From a virus (Duplodnaviria; Heunggongvirae; Uroviricota; Caudoviricetes): DNA of 16,868 nucleotides. Location of the stretch: the IMG/VR virus record IMGVR_UViG_2671180804_000001. One strand, given 5' to 3'. The notes beneath the pieces are model-generated. The model had not been told where the DNA came from. It did no database searches and saw nothing but the letters and a program-made list of their open reading frames with translations. Below are positions 1-16,582 of this stretch, in pieces. The position numbers and the translations under genes were made by a program. The stretch's first letter is position 1. Each line of letters starts with the position of its first letter.

Positions 1-891
1 TTACTTTGTAATGAGATCGGGGTCAACTTCGCTTAACCGGCTTCGTTTTGACAGGTTGCCGGTCTTTCTTTTTTTCACTTTCGCCAGTTCTTCCGCAGAG
101 TAATGCGACGCGACATCCAGCCGTCGAAGCCCCATTTTGATGTACTCGCTGTTGATCTCAATACCAATGAATTTTCGTCCGCTGGCGATGGCTACGGCAC
201 CGGTAGTAAAGCTACCAGCAAACGGGTCGAGAACGATATCGCCTGGGTTGGAAGAGGCGAGAATAATGCGTTTCAGTAAGGCTTCCGGTTTTTGCGTCGG
301 GTGGTTTTCATATTCATCCATCAAATAACGCACGCGCGGAAAATCCCAAACGTTACCCGGTACTTTTTGATGATTGTAAGGCTGTGGAGGATTTTTGCGA
401 TAATCGATCAACGCGCGCTGCGATCCGGTTTTGGCTTCTACCAGAATAGCATCACCGTTGAATGTGTAGTTCTTTGCGTCTTTCACCATCATCAGGATGG
501 GTTCGTACATGGAGCCGTAGTGTTTTTTCGCCTGCACTCCAGAACTGTCATATGACCAGACGATGCGACTTTTGATGGTAAAAAGCTTGCGGCACTGGAG
601 ATCGATAAAGGGCATGTTTTCCGTACTGTTCATGATGTACATGCTGCCCTGCTTTTTCAGAACGCGGTGGCACTCTGCAATCACTTCAAACAGCCAGTCG
701 ATAAACAGATCTTCTTTCCAGGCTTCGATCAGACCATCAAAATTTTTACCGATGTTATATGGTGGGTCGGCAAAGATCAGATCGACACTTTCGGCGGGGA
801 TCTTTTTAAGTTCGGCAAGCGCATCACCGTGAATAATGGTCTTAGCTTCATTACCAAACCGGGTCGGTTCACATCCTGTTCTCATGGTCAC
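1..891 (-). CDS. yhdJ: DNA adenine (N6) methyltransferase, YhdJ-type
   Basis: 296-aa ORF with a DPPY catalytic motif (FADPPYNIG) preceding an AdoMet-binding motif (LDPFAGSFTTG), the order typical of beta-class amino-methyltransferases. Sequence and length match my recollection of enterobacterial YhdJ. The stop codon sits at window positions 1..3. Confidence 0.85.
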   Translation of the reverse strand: MTMRTGCEPTRFGNEAKTIIHGDALAELKKIPAESVDLIFADPPYNIGKNFDGLIEAWKEDLFIDWLFEVIAECHRVLKKQGSMYIMNSTENMPFIDLQCRKLFTIKSRIVWSYDSSGVQAKKHYGSMYEPILMMVKDAKNYTFNGDAILVEAKTGSQRALIDYRKNPPQPYNHQKVPGNVWDFPRVRYLMDEYENHPTQKPEALLKRIILASSNPGDIVLDPFAGSFTTGAVAIASGRKFIGIEINSEYIKMGLRRLDVASHYSAEELAKVKKRKTGNLSKRSRLSEVDPDLITK

Positions 892-1158: not shown

Positions 1159-2295
1159 ATGGCTGGCGAACTTAACAAACTGAGCGACAGGAAGTTAAAG
1201 GGATTACATGGCATCCCGGCCAGTAAGATTGAGTTTTATGCTGATGGTGCCGGGTTGAGCGCTAAGGTAACTCTCAAAGAGGCCCGTTACTCGCGTGATA
1301 AATGTCGCCAGTGGCTGGCCTCAGGTAAAGACCCAAAGCACCAGTTGGCGCTAACTACTCAGGAAACGCTTAAACCGGTCACGGTGCAGGAAGCTATCGA
1401 ATACTGGATACGCGAATATGCGGAAGAAAACCGTGCGAACGTTGAGCGGCATAAAGCGGAGCTGCGCAAACACATTTACCCTTATATTGGGAAAATGGCG
1501 CTCGCTGACTGCGAAACCCGTTACTGGCTTGACTGCTTTGACAGGATGAAAAAGAAAACGCCGGTTGCTGCGGGTTATGTGTTCCAGATGTGTAAGCAGG
1601 CTTTGAAATTCTGCCGCGTTCGCCGTTACGCCGTCAGTACCGCCCTTGAAGATTTGAGTATTCCCGACGTTGGTAAAAAGCAGGCGAAAAAAGATCGGGT
1701 ACTGAAAGATAAAGAGGTTGGGGGATTGTGGGCAGCGATATCGTCCGGTGATGTTTTTTTGCCTTACTACACAAACTTGCTCAGAATCGCCACTTTGTTT
1801 GGTTGCCGCACCCAGGAGGCTAGATTATCAGAGTGGACCGAATGGGATATGGATGCGTGGGTGTGGACTGTTCCGAAAGCGCATAGTAAAGGCGGTGAAA
1901 AAATTGTACGCCCTGTTCCGGAGGCGATGCGCTCATTCATTGAAATGCTCCACGATGAGACAAAATCATCCGGCTATCTTCTAGGAGTAGTGAAGAATAG
2001 CGAGGCAGTTAGCCAGTGGGGCCGTAGCGTTTATAAAAAACTGGGGCACTCTGAACCCTGGACATTACATGATCTACGGCGAACGCTTGCAACGCATATG
2101 AATGATATGGGTATCGCTCCACACGTTGTTGAACAGTTGCTGGGCCACTCAATGCCGGGGGTTATGGCTATCTATAACCGTAGCCTGTACTTGCCTGAGA
2201 AGCTGGACGCGCTGAACAAATGGTATGACCGCATAGAACTTCTTGCGGGTAATCATCAAAATGTGGTTCTGTTATCTGTAACGAATAGAAATTAA
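1159..2295 (+). CDS. int: Tyrosine site-specific integrase (P4-type)
   Basis: 378 aa. C-terminal catalytic region contains HDLRRT, LLGHS and a tyrosine in AIYNRS, matching the R..HxxR..Y signature of tyrosine recombinases. First in-frame ATG after an upstream stop; RBS is weak. Confidence 0.9.
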   Translation: MAGELNKLSDRKLKGLHGIPASKIEFYADGAGLSAKVTLKEARYSRDKCRQWLASGKDPKHQLALTTQETLKPVTVQEAIEYWIREYAEENRANVERHKAELRKHIYPYIGKMALADCETRYWLDCFDRMKKKTPVAAGYVFQMCKQALKFCRVRRYAVSTALEDLSIPDVGKKQAKKDRVLKDKEVGGLWAAISSGDVFLPYYTNLLRIATLFGCRTQEARLSEWTEWDMDAWVWTVPKAHSKGGEKIVRPVPEAMRSFIEMLHDETKSSGYLLGVVKNSEAVSQWGRSVYKKLGHSEPWTLHDLRRTLATHMNDMGIAPHVVEQLLGHSMPGVMAIYNRSLYLPEKLDALNKWYDRIELLAGNHQNVVLLSVTNRN

Positions 2296-2387
2296 AATGA
2301 TATTGCGGGTCTAGGTCGGCCAACCGAAAAGCGGGATACCCTACCCGTCTGGCCCGCAAATTATTTAGGGGCGTTGAGGGTGACGGT

Positions 2388-5631: not shown

Positions 5632-5815
5632 TCTGAGCATGCTGGATATGGGCGACAAATTTCGCTCTCTGGAAGTCCTGTTAGCTGCGGCGCTGGAAAT
5701 GAACTGGAGTAAAGACGATGAGAGCGATATCGCCGTTGAGTTGATTGATATTGCTCTCCAGCGTTGCCGTGAATTGCGTCAGCAGGTGGATTTACCGGGG
5801 GTGAAGCATGTGTGA
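5624..5815 (+). CDS. Hypothetical protein
   Basis: 63 aa. GGAGG RBS; start overlaps the upstream stop by 8 nt, indicating translational coupling. Confidence 0.5.
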
Positions 5816-6116
5816 TATCTACCATCAACTTGTAAAGCACGCGCCAGATTTCAGAAGACATTCTGATGATGATTTATCTGAGGTTTCTGACGTCTGTGGC
5901 GAGGCAGCACGCGCTGTCAGCAATACCCTTACCCTGATTGGAAACCTGATGCTTGAGGCATCGCTGAGTGAGGAATACAGCAACGAAAACGCACGCCGCG
6001 ACATGATGTTGCTGGGTGACACGCTGCGAAATCTTCCCCGGCTAGCTGAGGCTCTGGAGCAGAACAGTTGCACAGCCAATTTTGTGCTCAGGCAGCGCCA
6101 GGGGGTGTTCAAATGA
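5808..6116 (+). CDS. Hypothetical protein
   Basis: 102 aa. Start overlaps the upstream gene by 8 nt within the same operon. Confidence 0.5.
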   Translation: MCDIYHQLVKHAPDFRRHSDDDLSEVSDVCGEAARAVSNTLTLIGNLMLEASLSEEYSNENARRDMMLLGDTLRNLPRLAEALEQNSCTANFVLRQRQGVFK

Positions 6117-6481
6117 TCAGTAACGTTAAATTCAACGAACTGGAAAAGCGCCTCGATTTGCTGGTGGAGAAGGTACTGAACCTCGAGCTGCAGATCAAAT
6201 CACTCACAGATAGCCAGGGTGGCGAAATCCCCACGGGTATGAGTCCTGTTACTACGCTGGCGGCGGAGTTTGGCATTTCAACCAAGAAGGCCGAAGAACT
6301 AGCGAAAAACACAGGGGTAATGCTGGTACGGCTAAAATCAGGCGGGTTCGTGGCTCCTGATGAGAAATTCAGGGAGGCGGCGCGGCTGGTGCTGCGTAGT
6401 GCAAAACGTAAATACGGATCGGCATACTGGTATCACCCGCTGATTGGTAAGTTCCAGATGAGTGGAGGTATCCCGCAATGA
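6113..6481 (+). CDS. Hypothetical protein with coiled-coil-like N-terminus
   Basis: ATG at 6113 preceded by GGGGGTG and overlapping the upstream stop (ATGA). The ORF track begins at 6068; the internal ATG is better placed. 122 aa. Confidence 0.5.
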   Translation: MISNVKFNELEKRLDLLVEKVLNLELQIKSLTDSQGGEIPTGMSPVTTLAAEFGISTKKAEELAKNTGVMLVRLKSGGFVAPDEKFREAARLVLRSAKRKYGSAYWYHPLIGKFQMSGGIPQ

Positions 6482-6843
6482 CCGATATTTTTGAAGTGAT
6501 AGGCCCATTGTTCCGCAAACTGACCGAAACATGTATTGCTCACCAGATAGCGGAAACCGGTTCGGCAACCTTGCTGGTGGAAAGCGATAAGTATATGGCC
6601 CGCTATCGCTTCACGCTGGAGCCGCGCGTAACTGAAAACGTATTGATGAAATATATGATTTTTGGCTGTTTTGAAGAATTCGGGCGCGATGAGGGGTTAA
6701 GGCGTTTGCGGGATATTCTGCTGACCTGCTTTACCGACGATGGCGATATTAACGAAATGGGGTTGCAGATAGTGAAAAGCTGCCACCTTGAATACCTGCA
6801 TGAAGATTTGGAAGCGGATCTTTCCAATAAGGTGCTGCACTGA
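6478..6843 (+). CDS. Hypothetical protein
   Basis: 121 aa. GGAGG RBS; ATGA overlap with the upstream gene and TGATG overlap with the downstream primase gene. Confidence 0.5.
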   Translation: MTDIFEVIGPLFRKLTETCIAHQIAETGSATLLVESDKYMARYRFTLEPRVTENVLMKYMIFGCFEEFGRDEGLRRLRDILLTCFTDDGDINEMGLQIVKSCHLEYLHEDLEADLSNKVLH

Positions 6844-8975
6844 TGAAGATGAAAAACGCCCCAAACATTAAGTGTCTGCCAAAGGACAAGTTTACTGAGG
6901 CGATTATTTTTGCGGGGGAAGATGCTTATTCACACGCGCAGCACTGGATCGAGAGCGAGGGGAAAAGGGCGGGGGATGATGTGCCGCCTGTGTATCTGGG
7001 GAAAAAGCAGCTGGAGGAGCTTGAAAGGCTGAATATCATCGATCAGGGGCGTCGTTGCGTACGCGTGATTAGAGCTGGCGAGCTTTCCGAAATGCAGATA
7101 AGCACTATCGCAACCAAACTGGCGCTGGCGGATGTGAAAGAGGCCCGGCTGTTTAATGGCATGTTTGAGCCTCAGCCGAAGGAGAACTGGACGGATGTAC
7201 TTCCACGGCTCAGGGAAGATGCCGAGCGTGGGGAAAGTATTGTGGTAAATCTGCCTGTGAAAAAAAGGGAGCCAAAGCCTGAACCGGGTGATGAACTGAA
7301 ACCCCGCGTAGAGAGCCGTAACGATGGCCTGTACTGGATCACGCCAAAGGTGGATAAGGACAGCGGAGAAATAATCAATAACGAAACGTGGATGTGTTCG
7401 CCGCTTGAGGTGGTGGGGTCCGGTAGTGACGGGGCCGAGCGCTATCTCGTTTTGCGCTGGCGTTCGCCACGTGGCCATGAAGATATTACCAGGGCGATCC
7501 CCTGTGCTGATATCGGTGAGCGTGACGGCTGGCGCTATCTAAAGGCTGGTGGGGTAAACGTAACGACTAAAAGTACATTCCGGGCAATTCTTGCCGACTG
7601 GCTACAGCAATGTGGTGCAGGGCAGGAATGGATTATTAGCCATACCACCGGCTGGCATCACGGCGCATACATCATGCCAGATGGTGAAGTTATCGGTGAT
7701 CCGGAAATGCCTATTCTCTTTAACGGTCGCAGCGCTGCATCTTCCGGTTATGCCGTGGCTGGAACTGCTGAGAGTTGGCGGGATTCAGTGGCATATCTGG
7801 CAGGAGGCAACCCATCGATGATGCTGGGTGTGGCTGCGGCATTGTCTGCGCCGCTGATCGGGCTGGTGGGCGCTGATGGCTTCGGCGTCCATTTGTTCGA
7901 ACAGTCCAGCGCCGGTAAGACTACCACCGCAAATATTGCGAGCAGTATTTGGGGCGAGCCCGACGCTTTGAGGTTGACCTGGTACGGTACCGCGCTTGGT
8001 ATTGCTAACGAGGCAGAGGCGCATAACGACAGCCTGTTACCACTTGATGAGGTAGGGCAGGGCAGCAGTGCTAAAGATGTCGCCACGTCTGCTTACACTT
8101 TGTTTAACGGGGCTGGGAAGTTGCAGGGGGCTAAAGAGGGTGGCAACCGGGAGCTAAAGCGCTGGCGAACTGTTGCGATCAGTACCGGGGAAATGGATAT
8201 TGAAACATTCCTGGCTGCTGGTGGAATTAGGGTGAAAGCTGGGCAGCTGGTGCGCCTGCTGAATATCCCCATGGAGAAATCCACGGCCTTTAACGGGCTG
8301 GCTAACGGAAAGGCCCACGCCGATGCACTGAAAGAGTCATGGATTGATAACCACGGCGCAGCAGGGCGTGAGTGGGTAAAATGGCTGGCAACCCACCAGC
8401 AGGAGGCTAAACAGGCTGTGCGGGATGCGCAGACGCGCTGGCGCAGTCTTATTCCGGCTGATTATGGTGAACAGGTTCATCGTGTGGCTGAGCGCTTCGC
8501 CATTCTTGAGGCTGCGCTGGTAACTGGTTCGCCGATAACTGGCTGGAGTGAACAAGCCAGCCGGGATGCTATTCAGCATAGCTTCAATGCCTGGGTAAAA
8601 GAATTCGGAACAGGTAACAAGGAGCACCAGCAGATCATCGAGCAGTGCGAGGCCTTTCTGAACGCGCATGGTATGAGCCGCTATGCTCCGCTGCCATACT
8701 GCCCGTCAGATATGCCAATTCGTGATATGGCTGGATACCGCGAAAGGGGCAAGCATGATGATTCGCCGATGGTGTTTTATACCTTCCCTTCTGCGTTCGA
8801 AAAAGAGATAGCGCAGGGGTTCAATGCGAAGCAGTTCGCCAGAGTTCTGTCTGAATCTGGAATGTTGACACCCCCAGCAAGCGGCAGGGGATACCAGCGG
8901 AAATCACCGCGTATCGATGGGCGTCAGATTAATGTTTACGTCATTCAGTACCAGCAGGAGGGAACCGAAGAATAA
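6843..8975 (+). CDS. Replication initiator, primase/helicase-like protein (P4 alpha-like role)
   Basis: 710 aa, last gene of the coupled operon and immediately upstream of the iteron array. Contains a P-loop-like motif (LFEQSSAGKTTTAN). Resembles satellite/prophage primase-helicase proteins of the DUF927 type; that assignment is from memory, not a search. Confidence 0.75.
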   Translation: MKMKNAPNIKCLPKDKFTEAIIFAGEDAYSHAQHWIESEGKRAGDDVPPVYLGKKQLEELERLNIIDQGRRCVRVIRAGELSEMQISTIATKLALADVKEARLFNGMFEPQPKENWTDVLPRLREDAERGESIVVNLPVKKREPKPEPGDELKPRVESRNDGLYWITPKVDKDSGEIINNETWMCSPLEVVGSGSDGAERYLVLRWRSPRGHEDITRAIPCADIGERDGWRYLKAGGVNVTTKSTFRAILADWLQQCGAGQEWIISHTTGWHHGAYIMPDGEVIGDPEMPILFNGRSAASSGYAVAGTAESWRDSVAYLAGGNPSMMLGVAAALSAPLIGLVGADGFGVHLFEQSSAGKTTTANIASSIWGEPDALRLTWYGTALGIANEAEAHNDSLLPLDEVGQGSSAKDVATSAYTLFNGAGKLQGAKEGGNRELKRWRTVAISTGEMDIETFLAAGGIRVKAGQLVRLLNIPMEKSTAFNGLANGKAHADALKESWIDNHGAAGREWVKWLATHQQEAKQAVRDAQTRWRSLIPADYGEQVHRVAERFAILEAALVTGSPITGWSEQASRDAIQHSFNAWVKEFGTGNKEHQQIIEQCEAFLNAHGMSRYAPLPYCPSDMPIRDMAGYRERGKHDDSPMVFYTFPSAFEKEIAQGFNAKQFARVLSESGMLTPPASGRGYQRKSPRIDGRQINVYVIQYQQEGTEE

Positions 8976-8995
8976 TTACACGTGAGGTTTATTTT

Positions 8996-9284
8996 GTTGG
9001 TTCAGTTGGTTCAGTAGGTAGTGTGTATCGTTATCGTGGTGTTTATATTGATTATTTTACACAGAAACTGAACCAACACTGAACCAACAAATGACTGTTT
9101 TGAACCAACAAGCGGGGGATTTGAACCAACATACCTACCCTGCCCGAATAAGTGTTTTTACTGAACCAACATAAAAACGGCGTTGTTGGTTCAAAACGGG
9201 GCTTTGTTGGTTCACTAAATAAAAATAAGTCTTTTAAAAACAATGTTCTTTACAAATTGAACCAACTGAACCAACTGAACCAAC
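8996..9284. repeat. Iteron array, putative origin of replication
   Basis: 12 exact copies of the 9-mer TGAACCAAC / GTTGGTTCA. Forward copies start at 9069, 9080, 9101, 9122, 9162, 9258, 9267, 9276; reverse copies at 8996, 9005, 9185, 9206. The array begins about 20 bp after the primase stop. Confidence 0.75.
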
Positions 9285-9321
9285 ATAGTTTTGTTTATAT
9301 ACGCAGAAAATGAGGTGAAAA

Positions 9322-9543
9322 ATGTTGGATGCCGGAATGATTGAGAAGAAATCAGCAGGAAGTGCATCGTTGTGGATGCGTGAGGCTGTGGAGGAAATAG
9401 ATAAACAATTTGGCGTTGGCTATGCCAGCAACAACCCTGAGCTGGTGGCAGGGTTCATGCAGGCAGCAGCCATTGATCAGGCGGGGATGTATATCCGGTC
9501 GCTGGTGGAAACGCTGGATTTATGGCCCGGTTCGCTGGCTTAA
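9322..9543 (+). CDS. Hypothetical small protein
   Basis: 73 aa with GAGGTG RBS, directly downstream of the iterons. Confidence 0.5.
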   Translation: MLDAGMIEKKSAGSASLWMREAVEEIDKQFGVGYASNNPELVAGFMQAAAIDQAGMYIRSLVETLDLWPGSLA

Positions 9544-9588
9544 AGCTGAGAGTAAGCCAAAAAACAACATAATTGATGGAGGTAATTT

Positions 9589-9783
9589 ATGGCCTTTAAC
9601 GATTTTATGGAAGAATCGGAATTGTTTGAGCTACTGGGCAAGAAAAAAACGGCTGTATGGCGGTTACGAAAAGACCATGGTTTTCCGAATCCTGTTCTTA
9701 CCTACCCGTCGCGCTACAGCCGCAAAGCTGTAATGAAATGGCTTGAGGATGGTGGTATTAACCGTACGGTTTGTGGTTATTGA
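9589..9783 (+). CDS. AlpA/Xis-like helix-turn-helix DNA-binding protein (second copy in the element)
   Basis: 64 aa with GGAGG RBS. ELFELLGKKKTAVWRLRKDHGFPNPVLTYPSRYSRKAVMKWLE fits the AlpA/excisionase HTH pattern. Confidence 0.6.
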   Translation: MAFNDFMEESELFELLGKKKTAVWRLRKDHGFPNPVLTYPSRYSRKAVMKWLEDGGINRTVCGY

Positions 9784-9798
9784 ACCTGAATTTATCTG

Positions 9799-9827
9799 GC
9801 TGCACTCTTTTGGGTGCAGTTATTTTC
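9799..9827 (+). terminator. Rho-independent terminator after the AlpA-like gene
   Basis: GCTGCAC - tcttttgg - GTGCAGT stem-loop followed by TATTTTCC. Confidence 0.5.
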
Positions 9828-10048
9828 CTGTCAGGTAGGGATGGATGTTGATCATTACCTGTAATCATTATTCTCCGGCATACCGTTCGCCTCTTCGCGT
9901 AAAGTTGCCTGGTCATTGGAAACCTCGCCTTTCTGACCAGTTAGAAAAATCCTAGTGGTTAACATCTGTTGAATAAAACAGCAAAAAGGAGTTCACACCT
10001 TACGCACTATACAGTGCTACGCCCAAAGCCGCGTCAACGCTGGCTTTC

Positions 10049-10353: not shown

Positions 10354-10710
10354 ATGCAAAGACTGGTTGAAATTAAAAAACGCCTTGAATTAATCGAAGA
10401 AGCATTAAATGAACAGTATCCAAATTATAAATCAGACCCTGAGATTACAGCACAAATTACAGAATTGAAAGGACATGTACAAGACGCTCGTAAAATAATA
10501 CAAAAAAAGAAATCCCTGGGTGAACTATCAGACTTTGAAATAGCATTTATCGAACCAGCTATTAATGATGTTTACTTAACCTCGATCGATAAAATTCGTC
10601 GTGGAGCCAAACCTAGCCCTAGCGTGAGTGAACATATATACGATACGTCTGTGACTTTGGATCATTGGTTGGGCGAAATTGGTAGGTTTAAATCCAATCA
10701 GAATGGTTAA
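10354..10710 (+). CDS. Hypothetical protein, gene 1 of the AT-rich cargo operon
   Basis: 118 aa, charged and predicted helical. A sampled stretch (10381..10440) is about 33% G+C. No recognisable motif. Confidence 0.55.
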   Translation: MQRLVEIKKRLELIEEALNEQYPNYKSDPEITAQITELKGHVQDARKIIQKKKSLGELSDFEIAFIEPAINDVYLTSIDKIRRGAKPSPSVSEHIYDTSVTLDHWLGEIGRFKSNQNG

Positions 10711-10761
10711 AGCGATTTGTAATGTTTTGATTTTTGTAAGGGTGGAATTCGGAGGGGAGAA

Positions 10762-11664
10762 ATGGTAGCAAGCGTATCAACTAAGGAAAATTTGCCTAAG
10801 CTGGAGACAACCTTTCATGTCAAAGCGAATGGTTCAAGTATAAATATCAAACTTGGTGCTTTAGAGTTTAATCATGTCTTATCTCCATGTGAAAAATATT
10901 TATATGTTCAACTTTGTAACTCAACGTCTGAGGACTCAGGTAAATTCATTAAATTAGATGTAACTACTGGACGTAAAATTTATTCGGTAGGGCCTGAGTG
11001 GGGATGGGCCAGAGGCTATACATTTAATCATGATGGAAATATTTGTGTTGAGACAGATCACTATGGTACCTGGTTAGTTAATGATGATGGAGGTATTTCA
11101 GACCGCGCTGATTACTATATGCGCCGCGTGAAGACTGCTGATTATGGAACGATGAGAGCTTTGCCTAATTTTTTTGAGTTGCATGGGAAAACACCTGAAA
11201 CATGTGCCGAGGCGATGGAGGCTCTTGAACGATTTTTGAGTACATGTTCATCCATGTTCCATGGATTGTCGTATGGTGCTCTGGCATTAAAATCACGTGC
11301 TGAGATTCAAGCCTTTTTGGGTGATAACTCAGGGGCACTACAGAGTTGCGTTGATGCTTTATGCCTTGACCCAAAAGTTACAGTTAAACGAATGCTGAAT
11401 TCACTTAGTAAAAAACTTAATCTTGATAAAGACACTTTAAAACCTTCCGATTGGGTTGAGTCGCTAAAAGTTGATATAGAAGCCAATCGTAATATTGAAA
11501 TCAATAAGATTGAAGAAAATCGCAATCAGATAAAAGATAAGGATGTGATTGTTGTCAGTGACATGAAAATTATGAATAAAGAACCACATGCTAAAAATAA
11601 CATCATGAAATATTTTTTGCTGATAGTGGTCTTAGTGGCAGCATTAGTTGCTCTCTTCAAATGA
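10762..11664 (+). CDS. Hypothetical membrane-anchored protein, gene 2 of the AT-rich cargo operon
   Basis: 300 aa with strong GGAGGGGAG RBS. Single hydrophobic helix at the extreme C-terminus (YFLLIVVLVAALVALF); the rest looks soluble. AT-rich. Confidence 0.6.
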   Translation: MVASVSTKENLPKLETTFHVKANGSSINIKLGALEFNHVLSPCEKYLYVQLCNSTSEDSGKFIKLDVTTGRKIYSVGPEWGWARGYTFNHDGNICVETDHYGTWLVNDDGGISDRADYYMRRVKTADYGTMRALPNFFELHGKTPETCAEAMEALERFLSTCSSMFHGLSYGALALKSRAEIQAFLGDNSGALQSCVDALCLDPKVTVKRMLNSLSKKLNLDKDTLKPSDWVESLKVDIEANRNIEINKIEENRNQIKDKDVIVVSDMKIMNKEPHAKNNIMKYFLLIVVLVAALVALFK

Positions 11665-11702
11665 TATTCATATAGGTGATTAATAATCATAAGGTTTAGT
11701 TT

Positions 11703-12224
11703 ATGCAGGAGCTAACGATACAGTTTGCCAAAGATTTACACAGTGTGTTTCAAAGCAATCGCAATAAATTAGATAAGATAGGAATACCATTTTTTTATAG
11801 TTTTCCGACAAATGCATGCCAGGGCGCATCTGTGTATCTTAGCTTATTTTTTACGTGGCTTGTGCCAGAGGCTACTGTCAGAGTTGTTAAAGGAAGTCAT
11901 AGAACGCTGGATCATCATCACTACTGGGTCGAACTTGATGGGAAGGTGTTTGATTTGACAAATGCTCAGTTCGAATCCTGGTTGGGAGAAAGGTATCCTG
12001 AGCTGGACTCTCCTGTATATGCTCAAAGAAAGCATCCTCTTCGTAATTATTTTTTTTATAAAGAAAGAGAGTCGGCCATCCGTGCTTATGCAACATTCTG
12101 TAGCGAGCATGCGAACGTAAAAGATGTAGACAAGGCGCAATGGTTTGTTATGGGGAAACTCAGAGAAATGGGCTGGGAACTTGAGCAGAACATCGCTGGT
12201 GGCCGATTGATAAAAATAAGATAG
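11703..12224 (+). CDS. Hypothetical protein, gene 3 of the AT-rich cargo operon
   Basis: 173 aa. Contains a conserved-looking Cys (TNACQGAS) and a His cluster (LDHHHYWVELDG) that could form a Cys/His catalytic pair; this is speculative. AT-rich. Confidence 0.55.
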   Translation: MQELTIQFAKDLHSVFQSNRNKLDKIGIPFFYSFPTNACQGASVYLSLFFTWLVPEATVRVVKGSHRTLDHHHYWVELDGKVFDLTNAQFESWLGERYPELDSPVYAQRKHPLRNYFFYKERESAIRAYATFCSEHANVKDVDKAQWFVMGKLREMGWELEQNIAGGRLIKIR

Positions 12225-12366: not shown

Positions 12367-12543
12367 ATGAACAAGAAGCAAAACTCACAAGTAGTGCTAC
12401 TGACGCGTGGTCAGGTTGAAGCTTTGCAACGCATTCAGGAAGAGGAGCGTAAACGTTCTGAATTTGGCATACAGCCATCAATCCATGAAATCGCACGCAA
12501 GCTGGTGGATAAGGCGCTGAGCTATCACGGAGGTGCTTTCTGA
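12367..12543 (+). CDS. Small putative DNA-binding protein (RHH-like), absent from the supplied ORF track
   Basis: 58-aa ORF translated by hand: MNKKQNSQVVLLTRGQVEALQRIQEEERKRSEFGIQPSIHEIARKLVDKALSYHGGAF. GGGGGTGG RBS upstream. Its stop overlaps the next start as TGATG. It falls below the apparent length cut-off of the ORF track. Confidence 0.45.
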   Translation: MNKKQNSQVVLLTRGQVEALQRIQEEERKRSEFGIQPSIHEIARKLVDKALSYHGGAF

Positions 12544-13379
12544 TGGCAAAAGTATCGTTAACAGCACTCCTTGGATTTACTGGTGGCGCAAATAACGTCC
12601 GCAATTCCCAAAAGCCAACACTTCGACAGCGGGAAAAATCCATGAGCAAAAAAGAGCGTAGCTTTGCACATCTTGATGCTGCGGCTACTCAAACGATTGT
12701 GGTGCAGGACCAGCAGCAAACCCAGACTCTGAAACCAGCCGGTTCTTACCGTATTTCCAGTCAGCATAGCCGGGGGCATAACGTTGCAATATCAGAGGAA
12801 GGGAAGAATAGCCCTGTCCTGGCGGTTAAGCTGTTACGTGAAACGAAACTAAGCTCCAGTAAAATCCGTGCTCGCCTTCGGGAAGAGCCTGCGGCTTTAT
12901 CAAAGTTCACGGCTAATTTCATGGAAGAAAATATGCCAGGCTGGGAATTTCTCAACGATGAGGAAAAATCCAGAACTGCCATGCAGCTATCCATTCGCGA
13001 TAATGATCAGAACGGTTATCACGCTTCCCGGAATCGTGCATCTCAAACGCTTAAATCGCTTGAAGAACCACTTACTGATGATGAAAAGCAGGCGATGCTC
13101 GAAAATCTTCGTCTGGACCAAAATGCTTCCGATCCTGATACCCCGGATAATGTTGCGGCCCGAAAACAAGCTGACGATGAATATCAGGAGCAGGTTGCCA
13201 GGGCTATTGTTGCCAGAAACAATCAAATGCGTTCCACCGGTGTGTTCTTGCCAGGCGATACCCGTACAGCTGGTGGTAAGCCCTCCGCACCTCGAAATGA
13301 GTTGCAGATGATTAAGTCTGGTCTTAAATCCGGGGCTATTGTGGTTTCTCAGCCCTCAAATGGAGAAATTCATCCATGA
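12543..13379 (+). CDS. Hypothetical protein, long paralogue of the following gene
   Basis: 278 aa with GGAGGTG RBS 7 nt upstream; coupled to the small ORF upstream. Shares a domain of about 100 aa with the next gene. Confidence 0.5.
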   Translation: MAKVSLTALLGFTGGANNVRNSQKPTLRQREKSMSKKERSFAHLDAAATQTIVVQDQQQTQTLKPAGSYRISSQHSRGHNVAISEEGKNSPVLAVKLLRETKLSSSKIRARLREEPAALSKFTANFMEENMPGWEFLNDEEKSRTAMQLSIRDNDQNGYHASRNRASQTLKSLEEPLTDDEKQAMLENLRLDQNASDPDTPDNVAARKQADDEYQEQVARAIVARNNQMRSTGVFLPGDTRTAGGKPSAPRNELQMIKSGLKSGAIVVSQPSNGEIHP

Positions 13380-13825
13380 CTTTCAGCCACCTGAATAACA
13401 GTCCCATGGCTGTGGCAGGTGGCCTTTGGGCCTCTGTCACCCCGATAACAAATGATGTCACTACGATGTCAGCGCATGCAGAGGCCCACTATATTGCGAG
13501 CAGCGAACCAGCTAAACACAACCCCATACTTGCTCTCCGTCTTATTGAACAGGGCATACCTCACCAGAAAGCAATCAGTGTGCTGGAGAAGTCCCCGCGA
13601 GCGCTAAGCAATTATACCGTTCGGAAAATGGAACGTTTCTGCCCCGGCTGGGAGCTGATGACTGAAGAAATGCAGAATATGGAGGCGTATCTCCATAGTG
13701 TCAGAACCAGCGATGGAAATGGATATCTGGCTTGTATGAACGCGGCCACAGCGGCATTAAATAAATTTATAGAGCCGGTAACGGCTGAAGACTTTATCCT
13801 GGTGGGAGATAGTGCTGATGTCTAA
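13376..13825 (+). CDS. Hypothetical protein, short paralogue of the preceding gene
   Basis: 149 aa; ATGA overlap with the upstream gene. RKMERFCPGWELMTEE...DGNGYLA aligns with NFMEENMPGWEFLNDE...DQNGYHA in the preceding protein. Confidence 0.5.
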   Translation: MTFSHLNNSPMAVAGGLWASVTPITNDVTTMSAHAEAHYIASSEPAKHNPILALRLIEQGIPHQKAISVLEKSPRALSNYTVRKMERFCPGWELMTEEMQNMEAYLHSVRTSDGNGYLACMNAATAALNKFIEPVTAEDFILVGDSADV

Positions 13826-14228
13826 TTCATTTGATTTTGAGCTGGTGGCTGACGATAAGGTCAGTGGTGCAATTGAGCGTATTAATGAATCACTGAATGA
13901 CTTGCAGCCGAAGCTGGATAAAACCAGAACGGGGCTGCAATTCGGTGGGCAGGAAACACTGGATGGTTTGAACGGGTATAACTCTCGCCTTGAGCTGATG
14001 GCCCAAAGCGCCAGAGATAATGTGCAGTATATCGGTAATATGGTCCCACCATTAAAATGGTTGGGGATATCTCCGGAAAGCTGGAGAAAATGGCGAAGAT
14101 TGGCCTTGTCGGTGGTGCTATTGGTGGTGTTGCCTACGCAACTGGAAAACTGGCTGAAAGCTACCGGGAAGCATCGCGTGAGGCCTATAACCTTGACGTA
14201 TCGTCTAAAAATGCCGGAATGCGGGTAG
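13818..14228 (+). CDS. N-terminal fragment of a frameshift-interrupted gene
   Basis: ATG 13818 with GGGAG RBS. Translation looks protein-like up to about 14040. After that the frame gives W/R-rich sequence, while the -1 frame (ORF 14057..14878) opens at 14039 and looks protein-like. Confidence 0.4.
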   Translation: MSNSFDFELVADDKVSGAIERINESLNDLQPKLDKTRTGLQFGGQETLDGLNGYNSRLELMAQSARDNVQYIGNMVPPLKWLGISPESWRKWRRLALSVVLLVVLPTQLENWLKATGKHRVRPITLTYRLKMPECG

Positions 14229-14878
14229 ACGACTTCTCTCGCCTTGCTGGTGCGTTGCAGTTTGTCGGCGCTGATAGTGAGAGCGCCAGTTCGTCTATTG
14301 AGGGATTTGCGAAGGCGCTGAAGGAGGCAAGTAGCGGCAGCAATCAGGGCATGATGGCGGCATTTGCGACAATTGGTGTGCAGATACAGAAAAATAAAGA
14401 CGGGTCTGTTGATACGCTAAAAACGTTACAGGAAATTGCGAGAATTTTCCCTAAATACCGCTCGGAACAACAGAAGTCAATCGCTGACAGTCTTGGTCTG
14501 ACACCTGAAATGCTGGCGTTAATGCGTGAGGGGGCGCGAATGAAAACCCTTCTGGCAAAAGCCGATAAAGTTGGACTGACAGTCGATCCCACGCTCAATC
14601 AGCAACTGACGGACTTTAACTCTGCAATAAACGAGGTCAGTGCCTCATGGGATGGCTTTAAGTCTAAAGTCGAGCGTAAAATTTACTCGCACCTTGATAA
14701 TAACGGCATAACAGATACTGTACGTGGCGCATCTGATATGCTTGAGAACAACTTTGACAATATCTCAATTGGTCGCTTCTCGGGACAAAACAAAGGGGAT
14801 GATTCTGCATTAATGCGCCGAGCATTGCGCGACCCTGAGTTTATCAAACAGCTCGATGGGAATGAAAAAACCAGCTGA
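14057..14878 (+). CDS. Central segment of the interrupted gene
   Basis: 273-aa ORF in the -1 frame relative to 13818. No RBS at its own ATG, so it is more likely a continuation than an independent gene. The helical, Ala/Leu-rich composition loosely resembles the N-terminal part of tape-measure-like proteins; this is my impression only. Confidence 0.5.
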   Translation: MVGDISGKLEKMAKIGLVGGAIGGVAYATGKLAESYREASREAYNLDVSSKNAGMRVDDFSRLAGALQFVGADSESASSSIEGFAKALKEASSGSNQGMMAAFATIGVQIQKNKDGSVDTLKTLQEIARIFPKYRSEQQKSIADSLGLTPEMLALMREGARMKTLLAKADKVGLTVDPTLNQQLTDFNSAINEVSASWDGFKSKVERKIYSHLDNNGITDTVRGASDMLENNFDNISIGRFSGQNKGDDSALMRRALRDPEFIKQLDGNEKTS

Positions 14879-14889
14879 CTGCTGGCGTT

Positions 14890-15642
14890 ATGACTGATCA
14901 GGCGAGAAATAAATACCGCAGACATTATTATAACCAGGACAGGGCACAACAATTACTGGACGATATGTCCGCCATTACCCGCCCTCAGGCTCCAGGTAGA
15001 AATAATGTGCCATATAACCAAGGGGGTCAGTATGATTCTATTTTTAGCGATGCTGGCAAAAAATGGGGCGTCGACCCGCGTCTACTCAAAGCCATTATGA
15101 TGCAAGAATCTGGTGGCAATCCTAATGCTATTAGTGACGCTGATGCTCGTGGGTTAATGCAGATAATCCCCCCGAACTTCAAAGCCACCGGGATAACGGA
15201 CTGGAAAGACCCAAACCAGAATATTAATGCTGGAGCACAAATTTTATCCGAAAACTTACAGAGGTCAGGTGGCGACGTACCTCTGGCGCTTCGATATTAC
15301 CACGGAGGATATGACCGCCGTCGATGGGGGCCAAAAAATCAGGCTTATCCATATGCGGTCCTCGATAATTACCAGCAAATTATTAAAGGTGAAGCCCGCC
15401 AACGTGACGGCTTTCCAGATATCCCCATTAATGGGCAATCTGCAGGTTCAGGAATTTTGCAGCCAATTCAGAATGGGAGCCGTAGTGAAAGTACGCTCAC
15501 TGATAACCTGGCTCGTTCGCTTAAAGAGGCAATGTCCGATCAGACGCTGAAGCTTGAAATCACCATGGTCAATGATAAGGGTGAACGTAAGACCTACAAC
15601 GTTGAGAATAATGGACGGATCACCACGCCAATGAATTATTGA
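14890..15642 (+). CDS. Lytic transglycosylase (SLT) domain protein, C-terminal segment of the interrupted gene
   Basis: 250 aa. Family-1 lytic transglycosylase motifs are present: MMQESGGNPNA (catalytic Glu-Ser), GLMQI, and a downstream YYHGG block. Its frame is open from 14866 and overlaps the stop of the preceding ORF at an A6 homopolymer. Confidence 0.7.
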   Translation: MTDQARNKYRRHYYNQDRAQQLLDDMSAITRPQAPGRNNVPYNQGGQYDSIFSDAGKKWGVDPRLLKAIMMQESGGNPNAISDADARGLMQIIPPNFKATGITDWKDPNQNINAGAQILSENLQRSGGDVPLALRYYHGGYDRRRWGPKNQAYPYAVLDNYQQIIKGEARQRDGFPDIPINGQSAGSGILQPIQNGSRSESTLTDNLARSLKEAMSDQTLKLEITMVNDKGERKTYNVENNGRITTPMNY

Positions 15643-15755: not shown

Positions 15756-15961
15756 GATTGACACTTTACACTAAGGTTTTTCCGGTTGCTGGGTTGTTAA
15801 CTCCCTTGAGCGGCAAGGGATTACCGGGAATAACCGCCGATCCTGATTGACAGTCAGATTGACACTTTCTGCCTGAAAAGTGTCAACCGGACAGAAAAAG
15901 TGTCAAGTAGCTGGCGCTTTACAGTTTGATTGACAGTTTCCCGCTGGTGGGTTGACACATT
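15756..15961. promoter_or_regulatory. Cluster of TTGACA(C/G)TTT repeats upstream of the TerS-like gene
   Basis: Copies at 15756..15767, 15845..15854, 15857..15868, 15928..15939 and 15952..15961 (forward) and 15877..15886 and 15897..15906 (reverse). The pair 15857..15868 / 15877..15886 forms an inverted repeat around a short spacer. Confidence 0.45.
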
Positions 15962-15994: not shown

Positions 15995-16582
15995 ATGTCA
16001 CTGATGAGTGTGAGTCAGTACGCTAAACACGCAGGGCTAAGTCGTCAGGCCCTTTACAACTGGGAGGCTAAGCAAGGTTTCCCCGCACGAGTGGACGGCA
16101 AGATTGACCAACTGGCCTGTGATGCTTATCTAGCCCGGTATCGTAGTAGCAGTGACCCGCGTACAAAGAATGCAAAGAGCAAGCCCATATCGGCTAGGGA
16201 GGTAAAGTCGATGGGGCGTGAACCGGTAGATATGAGTGTGACCGAGATAAAGCGCATTATGGCTGGCGACGCTAACAAAGCGGCCGGAATGGTCCTAGAA
16301 GAGCATGCTCAACTAGCTGCACAAGCAGTGGGCCTGTTTTTGAGTAAAGGGCCGAATAATCCCCCTGTCACATTTGGTGGTTACCGCTTGTCGATTGTTG
16401 AAACGCCAGATCATGAAGTTGGGCAGATCATTGCTGGTGGTGCGTTCGGCCTGTCTGCTGACGATGTAATTTTTGAATGCCGGGATTACACCCTGGCACT
16501 AATGAGTGATGAGACCGAAGAAACAGCCATGCGGAGGGTTACTCCTTCGCTACTGTACGCCCTGGCCGACTACAACCACTAA
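15995..16582 (+). CDS. HTH-domain protein, terminase small subunit-like (possible packaging protein)
   Basis: 195 aa with GGAG RBS. The N-terminal HTH (VSQYAKHAGLSRQALYNWEAKQGFP) is similar in pattern to the lambda Nu1-type TerS DNA-binding motif, as I recall it. Confidence 0.5.
   Translation: MSLMSVSQYAKHAGLSRQALYNWEAKQGFPARVDGKIDQLACDAYLARYRSSSDPRTKNAKSKPISAREVKSMGREPVDMSVTEIKRIMAGDANKAAGMVLEEHAQLAAQAVGLFLSKGPNNPPVTFGGYRLSIVETPDHEVGQIIAGGAFGLSADDVIFECRDYTLALMSDETEETAMRRVTPSLLYALADYNH

Follow-up and report, generated by a model that had tools for sequence, protein, structure and literature searches.

Until 2025–2026, phage satellites were thought not to encode tail tape measure proteins (TMPs). 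According to a December 2025 preprint, TMPs are not otherwise found in satellites, save for the mycobacterial EPIPs and a proposal made for PLE11 (PMC12822802). PLE11 of Vibrio cholerae encodes Rta, which restricts ICP1 through a block of tail assembly, with escape mutations located in the helper TMP (PMC12987554). The same element also encodes its own TMP, a tail assembly chaperone and a baseplate hub protein, and its TMP enters the satellite virions in place of that of the helper, making chimeric tails (PMC12987554). Putative tmp genes have been described in PLE-like elements and in some cf-PICIs as well (PMC12987554). No report was found in the literature of a TMP in the non-capsid-forming enterobacterial satellite family considered here; one possible satellite-TMP precedent (PMC4936722) was set aside because it concerns the TMP of the helper. 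The present work deals with a stretch of 16,868 nucleotides (nt), hereafter called the window (IMG/VR virus record IMGVR_UViG_2671180804_000001), whose region 13818–15642 is, as judged from its sequence, a TMP gene with an internal SLT lytic transglycosylase domain. We show below that this gene is cargo of a satellite of about 16 kb, similar to the phage-inducible chromosomal islands (PICIs) and to P4, which is integrated in an E. coli-type chromosome with yhdJ on one side and fis on the other, and that in this lineage it is very probably a recent and heritable double-frameshift pseudogene.

Identity of the gene and reconstruction of its reading frame

The initial annotation of the window had described an SLT-domain gene split over three frames by two successive -1 shifts, and this description holds. 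All of the open reading frames (ORFs) are present, and addition of one A at each junction yields a single 608-codon ORF that is colinear over its full length with single-ORF proteins, an agreement far beyond chance. The size expected for the joined product, roughly 600 amino acids (aa), was therefore about right; the SLT domain, considered to be C-terminal, is rather C-proximal, since about 100 residues follow it. That the gene encodes a tail TMP, and that it is located on a phage satellite and not in a prophage tail module, had both been missed.

A PHROG scan of the reconstructed protein matched residues 1–299 to phrog_2276, the tail length tape measure protein family (8.6e-86), and the SLT domain was recognised by Pfam at residues 410–510 (PF01464, 1.4e-24). 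The conserved Glu-Ser motif of this domain is intact (E431-S432, with E431 encoded at 15106–15108), and E431, S432, the GLMQ motif (G446-Q449) and Y494/Y495 of the Y-rich motif form invariant columns of the alignment. The best match to a solved structure in a PDB sequence search is 9b45, 'gp41 Tape measure protein' (3.8e-27). End to end, the protein is 63% and 65% identical to two 603-aa single-ORF TMPs of E. coli prophages (WP_282622345.1 and WP_130078013.1), and the other prophage matches are 601–604 aa long. The two E. coli prophages are myovirus prophages with Mu-like tail modules, in which the genes follow the order tail sheath, tail tube, tail assembly protein, TMP, DNA circularization protein and baseplate, the canonical position of a TMP gene. 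Among isolated phages, the nearest is Citrobacter phage phiNP, with an annotated tmp that is 47% identical over the full length. It is on the PHROG and Pfam matches, the prophage gene order, the phiNP tmp and the 9b45 structure that the assignment as a TMP is based. The canonical position is not found in the window or in any of the satellite relatives, where the TMP gene has as neighbours the unrelated genes for 58-, 278- and 149-aa proteins and a TerS-like gene.

Coordinates given here are positions in the window, and the TMP gene and its pieces are all on the plus strand (Table 1). The ATG at 13818 is the native TMP start. It overlaps the stop of the upstream gene (13823–13825), and the homologues begin with MSNSFDFELVA at the equivalent ATG. 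The first junction had rightly been seen as a -1 shift at an A run, but its location at about 14040 was not correct. Six-frame translation and alignment with the homologues indicate that frame-0 homology reaches K80 (14055–14057) and that the codon for M81 starts at 14057, in the -1 frame; position 14039 is merely where the -1 frame opens. The actual site is thus the A4 run listed in Table 1, with the sequence context CCATTAAAATGG, and the residues PPLK before and MVG after the junction are invariant among the aligned homologues. Past this point, frame 0 continues for 56 out-of-frame codons up to a stop at 14226–14228. The second junction had been placed at the A6 run where one extra A would fuse the ORFs, and the reconstruction bears this out. 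The ATG at 14890, from which the third ORF could start, is the native Met359. Both shifts are in the same direction (-1, -1), so they do not compensate each other.

Origin and history of the frameshifted allele

Among the results of a protein search are intact proteins of 608 aa: P0001 from Kluyvera ascorbata (98% identity), P0002 (90%) and P0003 (87%). The contigs with an intact allele share the gene order of the window, with products of 118, 300, 173, 58, 278, 149, then 608, then 195 and 63 aa, while their primases and chromosomal sites differ from those of the window. P0001, P0002 and P0089 sit in a 58/278(258)/149(160)-aa module that is followed by the 195-aa gene. A comparison of the homopolymer lengths in homologous loci had been suggested along with the initial annotation, and it proved informative: intact loci have A5 and A7 where the window lineage has A4 and A6. 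Junction 1 is A5 in a prophage (L001) and in all 8 intact satellite loci (L004–L011), versus A4 in 18 window-like loci, and the A5/A7 combination is found in 8/8 of these intact satellite loci. Over 7.3 kb the window is 97% identical at the nucleotide level to L004–L007, with A4/A6 versus A5/A7 inside the gene. The A5 to A4 and A7 to A6 contractions are the sole coding indels in this alignment, the remaining indels being intergenic except for one alignment artefact within a substitution cluster. The alignment of the window with a sister island (L003) is gap-free over 8.1 kb. These sequence comparisons show two independent 1-nt deletions in A runs that shift the frame by -1 twice. Replication slippage, the usual source of such deletions, is their likely cause. 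No single-frameshift intermediate (about 355 or 530 aa) was found among the 120 best matches, for which the 8000 candidates sharing most words were scored. None of the complete E. coli genomes carries this gene; the matches there were to two prophage TMPs and to the intergenic segment 15671–15750.

The broken allele is not limited to the window. Exact copies of its 273-aa product occur in 84 indexed blocks of the assembly collection, and those of its 250-aa product in 109. The 18 loci that were fetched correspond to 14 distinct assemblies (2 ENA metagenomes, 4 SRA runs assembled by Logan and 8 NCBI genomes), all of them with A4 and A6 and 99.8–100% identical over 13818–15642. With polarity set by the intact alleles, the changes that followed the break form a nested series: L026 has the frameshifts only, L015 and L018 have P216S in addition, and the window group has also acquired D74N and one synonymous change. 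A homopolymer sequencing or assembly error in a gene that is truly intact (A5/A7) was among the three explanations offered initially, the others being a pseudogene and a slippage-prone site. Both lesions are 1-nt contractions of A runs, which is the classic type of error, and close relatives do have A5/A7. However, A4 and A6 are common to 14 independent assemblies from ENA, Logan/SRA and NCBI, the later substitutions are nested on the frameshifted background, and other coding indels are absent in the 7.3 kb, as are gaps in the 8.1 kb, aligned to relatives. Moreover, runs of four and six A are too short to be error-prone on short-read platforms. The chance that the split is such an error is vanishingly small in our estimation.

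Hardly better is the case for a phase-variable contingency locus, in which the A runs would toggle the gene. Such a locus would also have its frameshifts in homopolymers. Here the tracts are short (4 and 6 nt), their lengths are invariant in 14/14 assemblies of the allele, with A5/A7 in 8/8 intact loci, and, with two off-switches in the gene, both would have to revert at the same time. We consider phase variation to be extremely improbable.

The third explanation, a site prone to slippage, would amount to programmed recoding. Two -1 ribosomal shifts, or transcriptional slippage, would restore the 608-aa protein in the style of dnaX or of the lambda G/GT proteins. At both sites, the P-site tRNA-Lys on AAA can re-pair perfectly with the AAA one base back. 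Programmed -1 shifts are common directly beside TMP genes, G/GT being the example. Neither site, however, has a zero-frame X XXY YYZ heptamer (CCA TTA AAA TGG and AAT GAA AAA ACC), and only single-tRNA re-pairing on AAA is possible. The 80 nt located 3' of the junctions fold no better than shuffled sequences (z = -0.53 and -1.13, in pseudoknot-free folding). The shift is not conserved, as every intact homologue read, from satellites and prophages, is a single ORF. Two inefficient events would also be needed on one mRNA, and A4 and A6 are below the run length that gives appreciable RNA polymerase slippage. The G/GT tail assembly chaperones and dnaX resemble the window gene by a -1 frame change and A-rich sequence, and G/GT also by its place in the tail gene region. 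They differ from it by a conserved shift and an X XXY YYZ heptamer and, for G/GT, by a shift in the chaperone gene, which precedes the TMP gene, whereas in the window the shift is inside the TMP gene itself, lacks the heptamer and is absent from the intact homologues read. Programmed recoding thus appears very improbable, and it is the first of the three explanations, the pseudogene, that has stood.

The substitution pattern is consistent with such a pseudogene of recent origin. The ratio of nonsynonymous to synonymous substitution rates (dN/dS) of the reconstructed window gene versus intact alleles is 0.097 (L004) and 0.096 (L008), and against the intact alleles the window branch has 20 synonymous and 4 nonsynonymous codon changes. 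With dN/dS close to 0.1, the gene has evolved under strong purifying selection during almost its entire history. After the break the nonsynonymous to synonymous count is 2N:1S, versus 2N:20S before it (Fisher p = 0.057), which is suggestive of relaxed constraint after the frameshifts, although the numbers are small. The other genes of the island have the same length as in the islands with the intact allele, so the decay is specific to the TMP gene.

The broken island has also spread. Most loci show 0 mismatches in 4.5 kb of the island, against 15–36 single-nucleotide polymorphisms in 4.15 kb of the adjoining fis-dusB-prmA-panF region, and the gene content farther downstream differs among the loci with the broken island. 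An identical island with divergent flanks means that, once broken, the frameshifted island made its way into diverged E. coli backgrounds; its own mobility or recombination could account for this spread, as the data fit either. Some copies have decayed further, by insertion sequences (L016) or by large deletions (L013 and L018).

Predicted products and proposed role of the intact ancestor

The only efficiently translated product of the broken gene would be a protein with the first 80 native residues and a 56-residue out-of-frame tail, because the later pieces start at native internal Met codons without a ribosome-binding site: no Shine-Dalgarno sequence is present before ATG 14057 or ATG 14890. 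It may be asked whether the fragments are used separately, for instance the 80-residue N-terminus to block helper tails or the 250-aa SLT protein as a muralytic enzyme. In favour of such a functional split, the N-terminal piece retains its Shine-Dalgarno sequence and its translational coupling to the upstream gene, the sister island likewise keeps an N-terminal stub (44 codons), the SLT motifs are intact, and the broken allele is widespread, in diverged hosts. Tail-assembly interference by satellites and prophages is also documented (PMC11364771, PMC12987554). Yet both internal ATG codons are devoid of a Shine-Dalgarno sequence and the lesions made no new start signal. The substitutions after the break are mostly nonsynonymous, D74N being within the N-terminal fragment, and the stubs of the two islands differ in length and in tail sequence, as accidental breakpoints would give. 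Separate use of the fragments is improbable, and we give it a small chance.

The recent pseudogene would derive from a functional gene whose role can be proposed by analogy with PLE11. The satellite TMP of the intact ancestor would replace that of a helper myovirus and so give the satellite particles chimeric tails; in other words, the ancestor probably substitutes for the helper TMP. Such a role fits with a length within 5 residues of that of the two prophage TMPs, with conserved termini and with purifying selection. The window lineage would then have lost the TMP function, as the sister island L003 would have too.

Several points weigh against these interpretations. The suggestive signal of relaxed constraint comes from three substitutions. 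The broken allele is present in 84–109 blocks of the assembly collection, versus six contigs for the 98% identical intact allele, so that the loss was not obviously costly; it could even have been selected, or a fragment could keep a role. The SLT domain of the third ORF is intact and this ORF lies 12 nt after the stop of the second, where some reinitiation is conceivable. Ribosomal or transcriptional slippage on A4 and A6 could still take place at a low level. Finally, the role in chimeric tails is a proposal made by analogy with PLE11.

The satellite island

The features of the island are listed in Table 1. Its right end is adjoined by fis in related loci, and it is not integrated at a tRNA gene here, no tRNA or tmRNA having been detected in the window. 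The island also encodes AlpA, an Ant antirepressor and an Icd-like repressor. Genes for a capsid, a portal, the large subunit of terminase or lysis were not detected in it.

Table 1. Features of the window and of the reconstructed TMP gene.
Feature	Position	Strand	Remarks
yhdJ	1–891	-	left flank
Integrase	1159–2295		
int-alpA RNA motif	2304–2371		directly after the integrase stop; Rfam, 60.8 bits
DUF927 / P4 alpha-like primase	6843–8975		phrog_1139
58-aa gene	12367–12543	+	same operon, coupled
278-aa gene	12543–13379	+	same operon, coupled
149-aa gene	13376–13825	+	same operon, coupled
Shine-Dalgarno GGGAG	13804..13808	+	9 nt before ATG 13818; read from sequence
ORF1	13812/13818..14228	+	frame 0; from ORF list and sequence
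TMP segment 1	13818..14057	+	codons 1–80, frame 0
Junction 1, A4 run	14054..14057	+	A5 in intact alleles; 1-nt deletion
ORF2	14057..14878	+	frame -1; ends in NEKTS and stop
TMP segment 2	14057..14870	+	codons 81–351, frame -1; ATG is native internal Met81
Junction 2, A6 run	14865..14870	+	A7 in intact alleles; 1-nt deletion
TMP segment 3	14866..15642	+	codons 352–608, second -1 frame; stop 15640–15642
ORF3	14890..15642	+	next -1 frame, open from 14866
SLT lytic transglycosylase domain	15043..15345	+	residues 410–510
TTGACAnTTT repeats	15758..15961	.	at least 6 copies, four direct and two inverted
TerS-like 195-aa gene	15995..16582	+	phrog_57 terminase small subunit, 2.7e-9; N-terminus TerS-like

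The operon of three coupled genes upstream of the TMP gene represents a conserved core of these satellites, whether the TMP is present or not, and it is found in at least 8 genera of Enterobacterales. The 278-aa and 149-aa proteins are paralogues (37% identity over 109 aa), and Pfam, PHROG, NCBIfam and PADLOC scans gave no match above the family cut-offs for any of the three proteins; the two paralogues have no match in PDB either. We considered whether the 278/149-aa pair could be G/GT-like chaperones. This idea was set aside, as the 149-aa protein and the tail assembly protein of the prophage could not be aligned by BLASTP and as the pair is also kept in satellites without a TMP, which speaks against a chaperone role.

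Downstream of the TMP gene, the spacer of 350 nt between its stop and the TerS-like gene is occupied by TTGACAnTTT repeats, which are a candidate packaging (cos/pac) or operator site. Within the same spacer, segment 15671–15750 has matches in 59 complete E. coli genomes, most of them at 95–99% identity. For the 195-aa and 278-aa proteins, the sequences in PDB offered no meaningful match, just weak noise of a calmodulin-like kind.

Other observations concern the island at large. Three genes for proteins of 118, 300 and 173 aa are located at 10354–12224, between the primase region and the 58-aa gene. Searches in Pfam, PHROGs, NCBIfam and PADLOC gave no significant match for these proteins, apart from a sub-threshold match of the 173-aa protein to Pfam YunG. 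The integrase of the window lacks 90 bp (30 aa, KAGGISWVFTYRLDGQKLHRLTLGRYPDMS) of the N-terminal arm-binding domain; the deletion is in-frame, with its junction at 1271/1272. It was revealed by comparison with the otherwise 100% identical island of L013, whose integrase has 408 aa. The deletion may have left the island of the window without the ability to excise. Between the window and L026, 30 of 38 differences are in two small genes (5808–6116 and 6113–6481), and the segment 5808–6481 is a hotspot of local divergence or recombination, the rest of the island being nearly identical.

A variable slot in satellites of Enterobacterales

Both the 58/278/149-aa operon and the gene for the TerS-like protein are found again in Raoultella, Morganella, Edaphovirga, Rahnella, Brenneria, Hafnia and Klebsiella. 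The TerS-like gene, conserved in all relatives, closes a slot whose content is variable. An intact TMP at 87–98% identity occupies the slot in P0001 (Kluyvera ascorbata), P0002 and P0003 (loci L004–L011), and an intact TMP at 39% identity is present in Raoultella (L030). In Brenneria (L036) a TMP homologue is about 30% identical over its N-terminal part. The slot of Klebsiella (L040–L042, gene 8001–9875) contains a TMP-like protein of 624 aa, indexed in 441 blocks, which has no Pfam SLT match and shares 69% identity with the query across the N-terminal 66% of the latter. These Klebsiella islands have further cargo between the primase and 58-aa genes, with defence-like SEFIR/TIR, HATPase_c_3 and Peptidase_M78 domains.

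In other islands the slot has no TMP or only a remnant of it. It is empty in five species (L031–L035). Hafnia psychrotolerans (L039, 8486–9400) has there a glycine-rich fibre-like ORF of about 300 aa, and the slot may thus collect tail-related cargo in general. In E. coli 1368KP (L003, 15451–15630) a TMP stub of 44 codons is joined to sequence that in the window lies just past the TMP stop. This sister island, located at the gcd/hpt site, has its stub annotated as a 59-aa hypothetical protein, and the stub is the result of an independent loss by deletion. The double frameshift of the window and its lineage completes the series. Given this variable content, the TMP is an accessory cargo that is conserved when present and has been lost repeatedly. 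On another point, the L032 contig is labelled Pseudomonas lundensis and has an Enterobacterales-type module, with a TerS-like protein that is 68% identical. This label could reflect contamination or a cross-order transfer.

Comparison with known systems

The frameshift is a case of ordinary gene decay, and what deserves further attention is the satellite slot for TMPs. For annotation, the locus should read as one pseudogene and not as three 'hypothetical proteins' plus an 'SLT domain protein'. It is possible, and we propose it tentatively, that a widespread family of non-capsid-forming satellites of Enterobacterales (in Klebsiella, Kluyvera, Raoultella, Brenneria and E. coli) keeps a TerS-adjacent slot for tail-lumen or tail-tip cargo in order to build chimeric tails on helper myoviruses. 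The E. coli lineage would have discarded the TMP where it was useless or harmful, while the island still spread. The cargo concerned would be TMPs that share about 60% identity with those of prophages, some with an SLT domain and some lacking it, and the glycine-rich fibre-like protein of Hafnia. If true, the strategy of PLE11 would be extended to enteric satellites. Since one backbone exists in nature in intact, frameshifted, stub and empty forms, these could serve to test whether satellite TMPs remodel helper tails in enteric bacteria.

Compared with the TMPs of the E. coli prophages, the window gene has the same conserved N-terminal 80 residues or so, SLT motifs and last 50 residues or so, and nearly the same length (608 versus 603 aa). 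The prophage genes differ in that they are intact and inside a complete tail module, whereas the copy of the window is twice frameshifted and is carried by a satellite in which, unlike in the prophage tail modules, no other tail gene was recognised besides the TMP. With the Gram-negative PICIs and P4-like satellites, the island shares a size of about 16 kb, an integrase, AlpA, a primase, Icd-like and TerS-like genes, and variable cargo hotspots. It differs from them in that it carries a structural (tail) gene, and homologues of Sid, Psu and Delta were not detected by Pfam or PHROG matches among the ORFs scanned.

The closest parallel is PLE11, likewise a phage satellite with its own TMP homologue. 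PLE11 has in addition the inhibitor Rta, a tail assembly chaperone and a baseplate hub protein; family searches recognised no counterpart of these in the island of the window. This island is neither a PLE nor capsid-forming, and its TMP copy is very probably a pseudogene. The PLE11 TMP is only 20% identical to that of its helper, versus about 60% identity to prophage TMPs for the window gene. Three closely related satellite alleles, intact and reconstructed, show purifying selection (dN/dS about 0.1). Beside PLE11 there stands a different family of satellites, common among Enterobacterales, whose TMP genes occupy a defined slot.

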